Shown here in pieces: positions 55,335-63,810 of a DNA stretch of 64,000 nt. Origin of the DNA: an uncultured Chloroflexia bacterium (lineage in GTDB: Bacteria > Chloroflexota > Dehalococcoidia > GIF9 > UBA5629); NCBI GenBank assembly GCA_963775935.1, contig CAVZKR010000004.1:84550-148549 (forward strand), in the 5' to 3' direction. A program made the translations under genes and the position numbers. Below the pieces are notes generated by a model, which did not search any database, had not been told where the DNA came from, and saw only the letters and a list, made by a program, of their open reading frames with translations. Position 1 is the first letter of the stretch, and each line of letters opens with the position of its first letter.

Positions 55335-55424
55335 TTATACCTTTATATTATCCACCCGCCCAAACCTTTTATAACTTTCTACTGCATCCAAACATCCCAC
55401 AGCATGACAATATCGATTAGTCGT
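55335..55424 (-). pseudogene. Tyrosine recombinase 3'-end fragment (type I) #1
   Basis: [29 protein letters not shown]. Confidence 0.8.
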
Positions 55425-55465
55425 GCTTATAATAGTTCAGACAATTCTAAATAAGGGGGTAAATT

Positions 55466-56119
55466 ATGCCTAATTCAGAACAGCGCATGATAAAAACCGC
55501 ATTATCTCCAAATAGACTCGAGGCTCTAACCGATGGGGTCTTCGCTATCGCAATGACACTATTGGTATTGGGGCTCGGTGAACCCATGCTAAAAGGAAGC
55601 TCAATGCACCAGGAATTTACGCAGTTACTTGATATGTGGCCAAAATTCACAAGCTACGTCGTTACGTTCTTAATGCTAGGCTATATGTGGTCCATGCATC
55701 ATTGGCAGTTCAGTTTCATTAAACGTTCAGATAGCGTGTTGATCTGGATAAACATTCTCTTTCTGATGTTTACATCGCTACTACCCTTTTCAACGTTTCT
55801 TCTAGGTGAGTATATAGGACAGCAGTTGCCGGTCCTAGTATATGGGGGCAATTATATGGCGTGTATGCTTATGTGCTTTATGAAGTGGTCATATGCCACG
55901 GGAAAATATCGACTAGTAGATACAAATATTGACTGGCATGAAGTAAGAATACGTAATATGGCAGTAATGATTGGTATAGCCCTTTTCGCGATTGCTATGG
56001 GCATATCATACCTAAATCCTATTGTGTCAATTGGTCTTTTTGCCGCGACTATTATTTCCGCTATGATATTCTCAACGCTTCGATTTCGTATACGCGTTGC
56101 TGAACAAGTAGCAAAATAG
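55466..56119 (+). CDS. TMEM175-family potassium channel
   Basis: RLEALTDGVFAIAMTLLVL, W..HH..F, SLLPFST. Confidence 0.9.
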   Translation: MPNSEQRMIKTALSPNRLEALTDGVFAIAMTLLVLGLGEPMLKGSSMHQEFTQLLDMWPKFTSYVVTFLMLGYMWSMHHWQFSFIKRSDSVLIWINILFLMFTSLLPFSTFLLGEYIGQQLPVLVYGGNYMACMLMCFMKWSYATGKYRLVDTNIDWHEVRIRNMAVMIGIALFAIAMGISYLNPIVSIGLFAATIISAMIFSTLRFRIRVAEQVAK

Positions 56120-56188
56120 GTGAAAATATCAAGTACGTTAATTCACTCTGGTAACTGACCTGCTCCTATACCTAGTCCCGGTATAATT

Positions 56189-56287
56189 TCATACTTTTAT
56201 ATTATCAATCGGCGAATACCTCTTATGTGCCTCCACTGCATACAAGCATCCTACAGCCCGACAATATCTATTAGTCATCATCAATGT
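56189..56287 (-). pseudogene. Tyrosine recombinase 3'-end fragment (type I) #2
   Basis: [32 protein letters not shown]. Confidence 0.85.
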
Positions 56288-56321
56288 AAGGTAAAATTAA
56301 GTAAAGTGAGGTTTGATTGCA

Positions 56322-56350
56322 TTGACAATTTGTATTTTTAGGTATAGATT
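56322..56350 (+). promoter_or_regulatory. sigma70-type promoter (homologous to 57773-57801)
   Basis: TTGACA-N17-TAGATT, preceded by tgaggtttg as in the 57.77-kb copy. Confidence 0.65.
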
Positions 56351-56375
56351 ATGCATGTCGAAAGTGAATATTCAC

Positions 56376-56467
56376 AGGGGACGTTGAAGTACTACTTTAA
56401 TTTGGTCACTTGAGTGGTAGGGAGTCAATAGTGAAACCGGCCTGAAAAGGTCGGTTTTTATATTTTT
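56376..56467 (+). ncRNA. c-di-GMP-II riboswitch with overlapping intrinsic terminator
   Basis: GGGACGTTGAAGTACTACTTTAATTTGGTCACTTGAGTGGTAGGGAGTCAATAGTGAAACCGGCC matches the class II layout (TTGG.CACT / AGTG.AACCGG pseudoknot); AAACCGGCCT-GAAA-AGGTCGGTTT followed by T-rich run. Confidence 0.8.
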
Positions 56468-56545
56468 AAAGGGGAGGTGGTTCTATGACCTAGCAAGGCG
56501 GATGACAAATCGGTACGTTAATTTCTTAAGGGGAGGTTTTTAAAG

Positions 56546-60786: not shown

Positions 60787-61743
60787 ATGTATAAAAAATG
60801 TTTCGTTATTATGCCTATATCAGATACGAAATCAGCTAGAGCCCAAGACTGGTCTTGGATTTATAACAGCATGATTAAGCCAGCGGTTACAGGTAGCAGG
60901 CTGGGTTTTAGCTGCGAACGCGCTAAACCAAGGACTGGCAGTTTCATTAGGGATATTTTGAACCAATTAAATACCTCAGATGTAGTTATAGCTGAACTAA
61001 CTGATCAGAATGCCAATGTTTTTTATGAATTGGGAGTTCGACATACACTGAGAAGAAGGACAATCCTTATTGCACAACATATGAAATACGTCCCTTCGGA
61101 CTTGCAGTCATATTGGGTTGTCCTCTATAAATATAAAAAAACACGAGATTCCATTTATGATTTTAGGAGGAAAATAAGAGAGGTGCTACGTGGGATAATT
61201 TCAAATCCCGATAAACCTGATAGCCCTGTGGCAGATTTTTTAACTGATAGGAATGTAGCACTACTATCAATAGAGAAGTCGGCTAGTATCAAGAAATTGA
61301 CGGCGTTGGTTTCCGAGTTATCCTATAACATCAGTTCTGTTGATAAGATCCTCGAACTAGCGAAGCAAAATAGAGAAAAGAGGGAGAAGAAAGAGGCTGC
61401 TTCGGTATCAGTATTACGTTTTAACGATTCCTGTCTCAACTTACTCCTTTCCACATACTATATTGCTCCTTCCGAAGATGTGCAGAACTTACTCAGGGAT
61501 GTAGCTCATGAATACACGAAAGAGAATTGTAGGCTAGAACTTTGGTCTCAACCTGCTTTTGCGAAAGGAGTTGAAAGCAGCGCAGTATCCACACTACCAC
61601 AGCTCAAGATTAAATTGATCGAGTTGCTTAAGATGATAGGTAAAGTAAGAGCTGACTACATAAGTGACAATTATCCAGAACAACCGTTACCAGCTCCTAT
61701 ATTAAGCGATGAAAGTCATGAAAAGTATATATTAGCAACTTAA
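60787..61743 (+). CDS. Nucleoside 2-deoxyribosyltransferase/TIR-like N-terminal domain protein with helical C-terminus
   Basis: KKCFVIMP, IKPAV, SDVVIAELTDQNANVFYELGVRH, VPSDL, SPVADF. Confidence 0.75.
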   Translation: MYKKCFVIMPISDTKSARAQDWSWIYNSMIKPAVTGSRLGFSCERAKPRTGSFIRDILNQLNTSDVVIAELTDQNANVFYELGVRHTLRRRTILIAQHMKYVPSDLQSYWVVLYKYKKTRDSIYDFRRKIREVLRGIISNPDKPDSPVADFLTDRNVALLSIEKSASIKKLTALVSELSYNISSVDKILELAKQNREKREKKEAASVSVLRFNDSCLNLLLSTYYIAPSEDVQNLLRDVAHEYTKENCRLELWSQPAFAKGVESSAVSTLPQLKIKLIELLKMIGKVRADYISDNYPEQPLPAPILSDESHEKYILAT

Positions 61744-61766
61744 ACAATATCTGCAACCTAATTGAT

Positions 61767-61833
61767 TTAATAATTATCTACTGGCCTATATCTCTTATGA
61801 CTTTCCACTGCATCCTCACACCCTACTGCCTGG
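61767..61833 (-). pseudogene. Tyrosine recombinase 3'-end fragment (type I) #6
   Basis: QAVGCEDAVESHKRYRPVDNY*. Confidence 0.8.
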
Positions 61834-61961
61834 CCCTAGAGCAATTTTATAATTTTGAAATTTTGACCGGTTCCTGGGGATCCTCATTCAAGTTTAAGGC
61901 GACTATTGTGAGGCGATAATTTAAAAAAATTAATTACTCAATTCACATTTCGGGGTGACTA

Positions 61962-63079
61962 TATGTAACGTCTTAAATATTTGCGCATAATACTTTAAGA
62001 GTGCCATTAGGCTGCTCCCATCTCGTAAATTGAGATACTAAAGCGATTCTCAATTTTTCGACGGATGTGAAATAACGGTTGTGAGTTACCTGTCGTCGAG
62101 TGATTCGCCAGACCCGTTCCACCGGATTGAGTTCGGGTGAATATGACGGCAGGAAGATTCGTATCAGTCGGTCTTGATTGGACGCGAACAAGTCTTTCAA
62201 ACCTTTCGCCCTGTGCCATTTGGCATTGTCCAGGATAAGATATATTTTCCCTTGTGTAGATTCGAGGAGATACCGGATAAAGTCGCCAAAGGTCTCGGAA
62301 TTGAAGGTAGGCGCCTCTTTTGTAAGGAGACTGCCTGTTTTCAGATTGAGTGCCCCGAAGAAACCCACGTTGTGACGGACTGAAGGCGAAACTACGCGAG
62401 GTTGTTGTCCTTTCGGAGCCCACATCCTTATCAGGCTGCTGTGTCGCTGGAAATGGACTTCGTCCTCGCACCAAAGCTGCATCGTAGGGTCTTTCATCCA
62501 CTCGTAGAAGTTTTTTTAAAGGCCTCCTGCCGGAGAGGATCGGCTTCGCTTGCCTGACGGCGAGGTCTCTGGAGGCTGAATCCCATCTGATGGAATAGTC
62601 TTTGGCATTGCCGTACACTGAGCGATATAGCGTAGTTCTTTCCCAGGTGGTGTGACAATAACACGCCGTCCCACAGGTTTTGATCATAACCCGTATCTCT
62701 GGGAGAACGCCGTAATTCTTTTCGCACTCTTTGCTTTTGCGAAGCTGAAAGACGGCCAGGTCGGCCAGGATGCTTTCCGTCCCAAAGTCCGCTAAGCCCG
62801 TGAGAAGCCAGTCTTTTAACCCAGTATTCGATAGTTCTGGAGGAGAATCCGAAAGCACGTGATGCCTCATAGGCACTAGCTCCACGCAACACATACAAGA
62901 CAACGGCAAGCCGATGAAAGTATCGTCCTTCCCTGGTTCGTGATAATTCATCTTGAATCGCCGCAATAAAGATTTCGGCATCCGGAATGGTTATCCTTTT
63001 CATGGGAGCAACCTCCTACAGCTTTGCTCCCATTATATAGTATTAACAAAATATACGCAATATATTATGTCGCTTCATA
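61962..63079 (-). mobile_element. IS630-family insertion sequence
   Basis: Imperfect IRs TATGTAACGTCTTAAATATTTGCG and revcomp TATGAAGCGACATAATATATTGCG; TA duplicated at 61960-61961 and 63080-63081 within a CTAG target. Confidence 0.88.
61973..63003 (-). CDS. IS630 transposase, two ORFs joined by a -1 frameshift at TTTAAAAAAAC
   Basis: ORF1 HTH (GRPGRLS, W....L), ORF2 DDE (EDEVHF, LILDNAKWH, LPSYSPELNPVERVW); A7 slippery run at plus-strand 62511-62517. Confidence 0.92.
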
Positions 63080-63244
63080 TAGATACAAGCATTGTGATAA
63101 CATGTTATACGTAAATATATAAATCGATTTAATATTTTTTACGAACTGGTAGGTTTAACACCGACCAATACAGTTTGAAATATTTAAGAAATGGTAGAGA
63201 TTGCTTTCTGAACAGGAAATGGTTACAGGTAAAGGAGGTCAAGA

Positions 63245-63721
63245 ATGAAAAGCAGTTATCTTAAACACATTTCACTGGCTATTTTAGTAATGGTTCTGAG
63301 CATTATGTCATTATCCACAGGATGTGCTACTGGCGTGTCTGCGACTGATTATAATGTTATAAAAAGCGAATTGGACAGTACAAAGGCCGAACTTGAAACC
63401 CTTAAGGCACAGGCTTCCAGTTCTTCCACCAGTTCTGCTGACTTTGCCAAAGTGGGCATGTACGCAGAGATAAACGACAGATGTATGGACGCATGGCGTG
63501 TGCTTTATGGAGAGCCTAGTAAATATGGCTATACTAAAAATGATGTAGTCAAATGGGCAGCAGATTTGGATGCAAAAATTGCTGCCGTAAATGATGCTGC
63601 ATTGATAATTCTGTGGAAATCTTATGTAGCCGCAACACCGGGCGCAGATCAATTCAAGAAGGGTGTTACTATGCTCAGCTATCTCTCTGATAAGCTAAGA
63701 TCTCTAACCGCAGGTAAATAA
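63245..63721 (+). CDS. Hypothetical lipoprotein with coiled-coil
   Basis: AAGGAGG RBS, lipobox STGC, GVSATDY...coiled coil. Confidence 0.8.
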   Translation: MKSSYLKHISLAILVMVLSIMSLSTGCATGVSATDYNVIKSELDSTKAELETLKAQASSSSTSSADFAKVGMYAEINDRCMDAWRVLYGEPSKYGYTKNDVVKWAADLDAKIAAVNDAALIILWKSYVAATPGADQFKKGVTMLSYLSDKLRSLTAGK

Positions 63722-63742
63722 AGTCATCTCTCGTATTGGCGG

Positions 63743-63810
63743 TTATGCCCTACCCATATTATCCACTTGCCCATATCTTTTATGACTTTCCACCGAATCT
63801 TCAAAATCTC
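63743..63810 (-). pseudogene. Tyrosine recombinase 3'-end fragment (type I) #7
   Basis: FEDSVESHKRYGQVDNMGRA*. Confidence 0.75.

Follow-up and report, generated by a model that had tools for sequence, protein, structure and literature searches.

The stretch of DNA analysed here (the window, 64,000 nucleotides) lies within contig C4 of the genome of an uncultured bacterium of the Dehalococcoidia (G000, 88% complete; C3, C5 and C7 are further contigs of this genome). Its last part carries an array of mostly single genes that are separated by 3′ ends of integrase genes, here called tails. With moderate confidence we read this arrangement as the product of tiny modules that were added one after another, by site-specific recombination, to islands anchored at tRNA genes; in this reading the tails are remnants of integrase genes. 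The original prediction had named seven homologous repeats in this part as C-termini of Int/Xer-family recombinases, each with its own stop codon. By nhmmer, with a profile made from the copies in this genome, all seven were detected on the minus strand (7/7), with E-values of 3.7e-18 to 1.3e-20 for the first six and 3.7e-07 for the partial seventh. Tblastn with the longest tail peptide recovered six of them, with E-values from 1.7e-29 to 8e-4. In translation, the window tails correspond to 16-48 codons at the 3′ end of a tyrosine recombinase gene, and a stop codon is indeed kept in each of them; in the sixth it comes two codons early, and the seventh is a 16-codon piece. All seven belong to a family of Xer-like tyrosine integrases termed int1, and a second integrase family is termed int2. 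In addition, a second repeat of about 190 nucleotides (nt), repeat A, is present in the array.

From 55418 to 63753 there are seven cargo genes, each of them on the plus strand. The first int1 tail (55322..55418, −; nhmmer E 7.3e-19; placed at 55335 in the original prediction) is followed by a gene for a TMEM175-family channel (55466..56119, +). Behind tail 2 (56175..56272, −; E 5.1e-20) stands a gene for a secreted beta-helix/NosD-like protein (56546..57517, +), behind tail 3 (57632..57727, −) one for a caspase-domain protein (Peptidase_C14; 57886..58779, +) and behind tail 4 (58823..58918, −) one for a PRC-barrel protein (59064..59327, +). Tail 5 (59382..59545, −) is the longest of the window with 48 codons; nhmmer followed it to 59481 and peptide homology to 59545. 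It precedes a gene for a membrane protein with a zinc ribbon and a tRNA_anti-like OB fold (59600..60472, +). The next module boundary is formed by a repeat A instead of a tail (60546..60729, −; nhmmer E 1.4e-44), and a gene for a TIR-like protein follows (60787..61743, +), which matched the PADLOC TIR effector at 2.2e-08 and had no Pfam match. Tail 6 (61752..61837, −; nhmmer E 3.7e-18) is short, with about 21 codons. A lipoprotein-like open reading frame (ORF) of 158 amino acids (aa) without a family match (63245..63721, +) leads to the partial tail 7 (63753-63801, −; tail-model positions 29-77), which is fused to a full repeat A at 63802-63976 (−). The family searches agreed with the cargo genes as they had been named from the sequence.

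Promoter-like sites on the cargo strand were found after three tails (55404-55433, 56322-56350 and 57773-57801). The second of them (TTGACA-17-TAGATT, +) lies ahead of the beta-helix gene, and the third (+), after tail 3, is part of a repeat at 57752-57802 (family D8) that is 75% identical to 56301-56351. A c-di-GMP-II riboswitch (56368-56451, +; Rfam, 65.9 bits versus a gathering score of 53.5) precedes the beta-helix gene and was the only element returned by an Rfam search of window positions 48000-64000 at E <= 1. As it sits between the promoter-like site and the beta-helix/NosD gene, this mobile single-gene module appears to bring its own second-messenger control.

Divergence of the tails and their parent integrases

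The differences between the tails had been described as largely synonymous or conservative and attributed to different once-functional alleles, and both statements hold. Over the 20 codons shared by 21 copies of G000, the entropy of the three codon positions is 0.51/0.49/1.05, and the pooled ratio of nonsynonymous to synonymous differences (pN/pS) of the 21 copies is 0.33 in the integrase frame versus 1.06 and 1.60 off frame. The 21 tails align gap-free, while the copies of repeat A are full of insertions and deletions (indels). The low in-frame pN/pS and the gap-free alignment show that most of the divergence arose while the sequences were coding. The tails derive from many once-working integrase alleles. 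Clustering of the 5′ breakpoints around the LGH..Y box, which had likewise been proposed, was seen in part: denser groups exist (residues 247-249, 259-263, 276-281 and 286-288), but the 5′ ends of 76 fragments from G000 and its relatives are spread over residues 201 to 293.

An intact int1 was found not in G000 but in a genome of the same family (G010). This protein of 310 aa (P0001) matches Pfam Phage_integrase (PF00589) at 1.1e-32 as well as a SAM-like N-terminal domain, with nothing else at E <= 0.01, and its C-terminus is 86% identical to the longest window tail peptide. The repeats are thus Int/Xer C-termini, as predicted. In NCBIfam, P0001 stays under every family cut-off, the best score being that of XerA_Arch (177.9 bits, cut-off 220). 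It is neither a XerC/XerD equivalog (TIGR02224, 162.6 bits, cut-off 335; TIGR02225, 152.2 bits, cut-off 330) nor an IntI protein (TIGR02249, 56.6 bits, cut-off 265; NF011946, 31.1 bits, cut-off 435), and it has no match to Pfam PF16795 (Phage_integr_3). Among the matches listed, 119 other clusters share 67-91% identity with P0001, and the named sources are almost all Chloroflexota. Residues 253-294 of P0001, with the usual catalytic box, reach 93-97% identity in proteins whose overall identity is about 75%; this conservation could also mirror a constraint on the DNA itself. The full-length int2 of C3 is 37.5% identical to P0001, and int2 is likewise present as tail fragments (C4:132537-132614 and C5:40266-40337).

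No attC-like hairpin is shared by the tails: DNA folds of 21 of them, on both strands, gave z-scores of −2.1 to +1.45, mostly near 0. Tails as attC-like structures were rejected because their fold energies are indistinguishable from those of shuffles and no common hairpin occurs. The absence of this hairpin and the IntI scores of P0001 agree with the prediction that the array is not a classical integron. A 7-mer (TCATAAG) that is common to the tRNA-Met anticodon loop and the tails was not used as evidence, its chance being about 0.2 by our own estimate.

Repeat A showed no likeness to any Rfam family. Its origin as a tRNA or tmRNA fragment was rejected, as none of 41 tRNA/tmRNA genes gave a match, and so was its origin as the int1 upstream region, for which the best nhmmer E-values were 0.65-32. 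Its cargo strand holds GGTGGTACAAT, which by eye resembles an extended −10-like promoter element and is regarded as putative. An inverted motif of about 25 nt links the two repeats: TGACCTGCCCC opens repeat A, and GGGGCAGGTCA is found after the stop codon of some tails. The motif also appears as ..GGACTGGTTTTTGGGGGCAGGTCA after tail stop codons (e.g. C7:109322-109347 and L088:1364-1390), its inverse TGACCTGCCCCCAAC.. beginning repeat A. Cargo is often bracketed by inverted copies of it.

tRNA-anchored islands in the genome and in relatives

In total, G000 contains 25 tails (E <= 0.01) and 31 copies of repeat A. A genome-wide scatter of the copies, which the original prediction had named as evidence against itself, was not observed; 23/25 tails and 31/31 A copies are gathered in four regions with a combined share of 3.3% of the genome. 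In three of the four regions both repeats have a uniform strand, namely in C4 (7 tails, 8 A), C5 (4, 9) and C7 (11, 12). The periodicity of the arrays was assessed by counting ORFs of at least 70 aa in the intervals, with tails and repeat A both used as boundaries. Of 38 inter-repeat intervals, 20 hold one such ORF, nine hold two, four hold none and five hold more. In the C4 island exactly one is present in 7/13 intervals, which is in line with the predicted single plus-strand gene between most copies. The GC content of the arrays is 40-42% versus 45.7% for the genome.

The window array continues past the window end to a tRNA-Ala(TGC) gene at C4:159895-159970. The window therefore covers the distal half of a tRNA-Ala-anchored island of about 27 kb, in which a 38-nt repeat of the tRNA-Ala 3′ end lies at C4:154227-154264. 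A classical island is found on C3, where tRNA-Ala(GGC) (367253-367328) is accompanied by a full-length int2 and, 13.9 kb off, by a 47-nt tRNA repeat (381155-381201). The head of the C7 array consists of tRNA-Met (96722-96796), 49-nt repeats at 101613 and 103185, and an N-terminal int1 piece. N-terminal pieces of integrases were confined to the heads of three arrays or their vicinity (C7:103314-103502, C4:159702-159955 and C5:37043-37345), and no intact int1 was found in the 88% complete genome. The search that had been proposed for a full-length parent integrase found intact int1 in relatives, but none in G000 itself.

Relatives were covered by 41 sampled genomes of the same order, G000 included (relatives numbered from G001), and by 69 loci fetched from species-representative genomes (L-numbered). 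The tail peptide has matches in 23/41 genomes, with 11 in G003, six in G010 and five in G006; ordinary C-termini of integrases account for the weaker ones. Full-length int1 of the relatives follows tRNA-Met at a distance of about 70 nt, with a conserved promoter and ribosome-binding site. It adjoins tRNA-Met in L063, while in L061 one gene intervenes. In G010 a gene convergent on int1 ends 29 nt from the int1 stop codon. Tails on the same strand are located downstream of full-length int1 in L061, in G010 and in a contig common to L063, L081 and L124; in L061 there are four tails within 10 kb. The second integrase, int2, stands beside tRNA-Ala in C3, L099 and L127, and tails and A copies follow it in the latter two. 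The int2 frame is open from inside tRNA-Ala in these three loci (C3:367253-368311, L099:7073-8131 and L127:2585-3643), with no ATG after the tRNA; a TTG some 30 codons further downstream is the probable start.

Fragments of the tRNA-Met 3′ end of about 46 nt are repeated inside arrays of several relatives (three each in L061, L063 and L111, five each in L074 and L081). Some of them are 0.9-1.3 kb apart, a spacing too small for an integrase gene. In a related lineage, cassette-sized units of 0.9-3.8 kb that are bounded by 32-46-nt tRNA-Met 3′ fragments and not by tails were seen at L063:17085-19560, L074:11766-19467 and L081:4481-9363. This suggests that integrase-less units may be mobilised in trans at the tRNA-Met site. 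Six loci show an intact tRNA-Met, a linker and a tail that begins at about residue 250; they appear to represent int1 genes with an internal deletion by which the promoter and the first 250 codons were lost. A frame that is open from tRNA-Met into the tail at 5/6 of these loci was considered as an SSV-type signature and dropped: the linker resembles the int1 upstream region by eye, and the internal deletion explains the open frame. Tail matches in metagenome-assembled genomes (MAGs) labelled Desulfobacteraceae, Bacteroidales, Methylarchaceae and Hodarchaeales stand on short contigs with possible mis-binning, and no claim on host range is based on them.

The outer part of the island in the window contains further copies of repeat A. 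The farthest repeat found from the island head lies at 47890..47985 (C4:132439-132534, −; nhmmer E 5.1e-09; model positions 80-175) and is abutted by an int2 tail of 26 codons (47988-48065, C4:132537-132614). Three more A copies follow at 50112..50257 (E 2.8e-27), 53561..53696 (E 6.8e-31) and 54121..54293 (E 5.8e-37), all on the minus strand. Between the last of them and tail 1 lies a two-gene membrane-protein module (54333..55121, −), which is co-directional with the tails and has no Pfam match; its paralogue in the C7 array (C7:108048-109154) is 81% identical. A crossover at the RYC/Q codon was considered for this C4/C7 pair; as tails are 70-85% alike anyway, the apparent edge next to an 81% identical module proves nothing either way. 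Within one A-bounded interval (51356-52592, +), genes for a DUF433 protein and a DUF5615/PIN-like protein adjoin, which are probably a toxin-antitoxin pair. Between tail 6 and the lipoprotein-like ORF, an IS630-family insertion sequence (61960..63079, −) has a DDE_3 ORF (61973-62497) and a helix-turn-helix ORF (62494-63003), apparently in two frames, and is flanked by a TA duplication. It is missing from a 310-nt contig of a metagenome run (X1), in which 61959 is joined to 63080 with a side of 129 letters and TA on both sides; its presence or absence is an insertion polymorphism in the population. Upstream of the island, an 873-aa ORF (42300-44921, +) belongs to a family with dozens of paralogues in three same-genus genomes. 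In the comparison of the flank with the same-genus genomes G001-G003, a multi-copy gene family at 64-72% DNA identity was met, so that synteny is not comparable.

Formation of the arrays

The sequences themselves show the anatomy of the arrays, their tRNA anchoring, the coding-type divergence of the tails and the presence of shared cargo in different tail contexts. In the accretion reading, small modules, usually of one promoter-bearing gene, would have been stacked one behind another by site-specific recombination of int1 beside tRNA-Met and of int2 beside tRNA-Ala. With serial integration at the tRNA, older units would be pushed outward and their integrase genes trimmed by deletion. The tRNA genes with their 3′ repeats, the integrases next to them, the N-terminal pieces at array heads, the internally deleted int1 genes beside tRNA-Met and the spread of tail 5′ ends all agree with this route. 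Each tail would then be the end of a working allele that lost its promoter and at least the first two thirds of the gene, from which mostly synonymous differences and no indels are expected. The last 16-91 codons may have remained because a deletion reaching further would damage the convergent cargo gene; with a few tens of bases between the ends of the two genes, the end of the integrase gene would always be spared. Repeat A marks other module borders, both repeat types having promoter-like sites toward the next gene, and modules may later have been exchanged between arrays and genomes with breakpoints just behind the tail stop and at the tail 5′ edge. The succession of events, the loss of the 5′ parts by deletion, and the enzyme and site behind each joint are inferences. 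Because G000 lacks an intact int1, its array is probably inert now, by analogy with an integron cassette array without integrase. As for the cassette-accretion system of the original prediction, the unit of cargo plus convergent tail and the accretion structure were recovered, while recombination at the int 3′ end has to be weighed as a rival.

Several observations weigh against accretion followed by deletion. The window array and the C7 tail array have no tRNA or tmRNA fragment between tails: at E <= 0.01 there is none between C4:132439 and 154227, nor between C7:103233 and 133000, and every deletion would therefore need to have taken the att (attachment-site) repeat as well. The int1 upstream region has left no trace ahead of the G000 tails; a search for remnants of the tRNA-to-int1 linker and promoter matched only at the C7 head and in stretches that overlap the coding sequence of the integrase. 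Furthermore, all 25 G000 tails are short, with a longest open frame of 91 codons, and neither a mid-gene piece nor a nearly whole pseudogene was found inside the arrays, which is very one-sided for random decay. In L061 an intact int1 is followed by two tails without a tRNA fragment between them, in one island bounded by tRNA repeats.

In addition, one and the same cargo can stand behind different tails. A block of 1.1 kb at C7:118098-119197, labelled Usp-like after window ORF 46851-47723 (Pfam Usp match), which has a similar N-terminus, is 94-100% identical to L061, while the tails on both sides are 66-78% identical; by reading of the aligned codons, the differences between these flanking tails are mostly synonymous. 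An int1 tail precedes the TMEM175 module here, and an int2 tail precedes its 89% identical counterpart in L099, another MAG. A module of G003 stands behind a tail, and in L088 behind an A-like element; another one stands behind a tail in L081, and in L061 behind unrelated DNA. Genomes thus share cargo whose tail context differs (C7/L061, L099 and L088 pairs), in support of the original prediction. Base-level inspection of four shared-cargo pairs placed the break of homology 0-18 nt past the stop codon of the tail in each (4/4). For two other pairs, G003/L126 and L107/L122, tail and downstream block were inherited together. The accretion reading also has to cope with a recurrent joint, TTCACCAAATGT directly followed by CAGGC, in which the first about 99 nt of A are fused to a tail from the codon after Tyr-Cys (Cys codon, then Gln codon). 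This joint is identical in eight copies from two genomes, beside different cargo. Tails behind it have a pN/pS of 0.43 versus 1.12 and 1.33 off frame, which is at odds with a single deletion followed by neutral decay.

Part of this evidence would be accommodated if the integrase 3′ end, between roughly the catalytic Tyr codon and a point some tens of bases beyond the stop, were itself the att site of an integron-like platform, an explanation that we consider possible though doubtful. Integrase-less cassettes of promoter, gene and tail would recombine with the tail of the resident integrase or with any tail of an array, and repeat A would be a second type of site that recombines with tails. Since a cassette tail could become the working C-terminus, tails would stay under coding selection. 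Such a site is consistent with the breaks shortly after the stop codon, the upstream neighbour differing in each of the four pairs, with the identical A-tail joint despite coding-type divergence of the tails, and with about 11 further tails that begin at tail-model positions 27-36. The L061 tails downstream of an intact int1 in a single island, the uniform strand and the one-gene periodicity fit as well. The 0.9-1.3-kb units bounded solely by tRNA-Met repeats in relatives are too short for an integrase gene, which makes mobilisation in trans by int1 plausible. Moreover, tail and body are uncoupled in 118 full-length homologues, where the identity of the last 24 residues correlates with that of the rest at r = 0.09 (0.31-0.61 for windows of equal mean identity); this low value nevertheless comes from few variable residues and may partly be homoplasy. 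Against a site in the tail, the integrases have ordinary tRNA att sites, G000 is without an intact int1, tail 5′ ends are spread and not fixed, and dyad symmetry or hairpins of the tails do not go beyond chance. A simple attC-like model predicts that the tail is co-inherited with shared cargo on one side, but the flanking tails are co-inherited on neither. No excision or circle junction was seen in the short Logan contigs of four wetland-metagenome runs, which can neither claim nor deny it, and the only inter-repeat joints have sides of 21-35 letters and are untrustworthy. Gene conversion among tails could imitate the mismatch of cargo and tail, the recurrent joint and the uncoupling of tail and body. 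From what is known of homologous recombination, however, exchange between sequences as short as the tails and only 70-85% alike is inefficient.

In two further explanations the repeats themselves multiplied. We regard as unlikely a spread in the manner of miniature inverted-repeat transposable elements, in which a composite of A and tail, about 250-300 nt long and closed on both sides by inverted sequences (TGACCTGCCCC...GGGGCAGGTCA), would have moved while the genes stayed. The first about 25 nt of A are the inverse of about 25 nt after the stop in a subset of tails, and the composite units resemble internal-deletion derivatives, but a strict pattern finds the end motif in only about 13/97 tails, and no A lies upstream of full-length int1, so that no autonomous parent was found. 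Confinement of the copies to 3.3% of the genome with one strand per array, and tail divergence that is coding-type and not random, also speak against such an element; besides, the parts of high identity common to genomes are the cargo blocks and not the repeats. Local duplication of one tail by unequal crossing-over or slippage with subsequent decay is very improbable and is largely refuted by the codon-position test. It would explain why the copies are in tandem on one strand, yet decay predicts a pN/pS near 1 and indels instead of 0.33 and a gap-free alignment, the intervening genes are unrelated to each other, and tails of both int1 and int2 occur. Accretion at the tRNA gene with trimming of the integrase genes remains the reading that we prefer at the confidence given above.

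Comparison with known systems

Dehalococcoidia genomes are small, and niche adaptation is largely placed in few plastic regions; the arrays show how single accessory genes are captured and retained there. In the window the cargo spans channels, secreted proteins, a caspase, a TIR-like protein, the DUF433 and PIN-like pair and a gene with a c-di-GMP riboswitch. Each tail samples a past integrase allele, and the array thus records the sequence of captures. Tentatively, the arrays may even be a cassette platform of the Dehalococcoidia in which a Xer-like integrase uses the last about 30 codons of its own gene and a few tens of bases past the stop. If this were true, single-gene cassettes would bring a spare integrase tail, insertion would swap the working C-terminus and move the old one downstream, and the tail array would be a fossil record of integrase alleles. 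The platform would then parallel the archaeal 'suicidal' integrases in bacteria, with a gene that repairs itself, and the integron principle would have been invented twice independently, here without attC hairpins. If the tail is the recombination site, the arrays would represent a novel design of cassette platform and, for bacteria, the first att site that lies within such an integrase gene; if it is not, the arrays would represent the most regular single-gene-grained tRNA-anchored accretion that we found described. In the literature searched, no account of arrays punctuated by integrase tails was found, though Supplementary Doc. 1 of the tycheposon study may hold comparable arrays.

The closest likeness is to accretion islands at tRNA and tmRNA genes, to whose kin the 'additive' flexible islands also belong. 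At ssrA of Dehalococcoides, tandem islands are described, 15 of them without integration modules, which the authors discuss as cis-mobilizable elements (PMC3146451). For the tycheposons of Prochlorococcus, serial tRNA integration is described as leaving fragmented integrases and partial tRNAs (10.1101/2020.12.28.424599). Like such islands, the arrays start at a tRNA gene, 3′ tRNA fragments were found here as direct repeats, and a tyrosine integrase adjoins the tRNA (int2 in C3, L099 and L127; int1 in relatives). New units displace older ones outward, some units are without integration genes and integrase fragments are scattered; with the Dehalococcoides islands the host even shares its class. 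Unlike in these islands, the units here are mostly single genes of 0.5-1.4 kb, their borders are formed predominantly by 3′ ends of integrase genes or by repeat A and not by tRNA fragments, and an att repeat does not bound every unit. In addition, truncation always spares the last 16-91 codons, the tails keep coding-type divergence, and cargo is exchanged with breakpoints at tail edges.

An attP within the coding sequence of an integrase is the case in myxophage Mx8 (intP/attP), where integration alters the 3′ end of the gene; unlike the present arrays, Mx8 is a single prophage without an array of cassettes. Archaeal 'suicidal' integrases (Pfam PF16795) have their att inside their own gene and are, according to a review, exclusive to archaea (PMC8371274). 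Common to SSV-type integrases and the arrays are the idea of a site inside the integrase gene and the C-terminal pieces in the chromosome, and chimeric genes could arise. The differences are that int1 matches PF00589, that matching N-terminal halves do not flank each unit (25 C-terminal pieces), and that the site, if any, is at the extreme 3′ end, so that the gene would be repaired and not destroyed.

With integrons the arrays share rows of mostly single co-oriented genes with repeats of 50-190 nt between them, diverse accessory cargo, the occurrence of integrase-less arrays and, in the relatives studied here, a Xer-related recombinase at the array head. They differ in that the integrase is without IntI signatures and the repeats are coding remnants without attC hairpins. 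Furthermore, unlike in integrons, the cassettes here have promoter-like sites of their own and are convergent on the integrase, and the platform is located at a tRNA att site.

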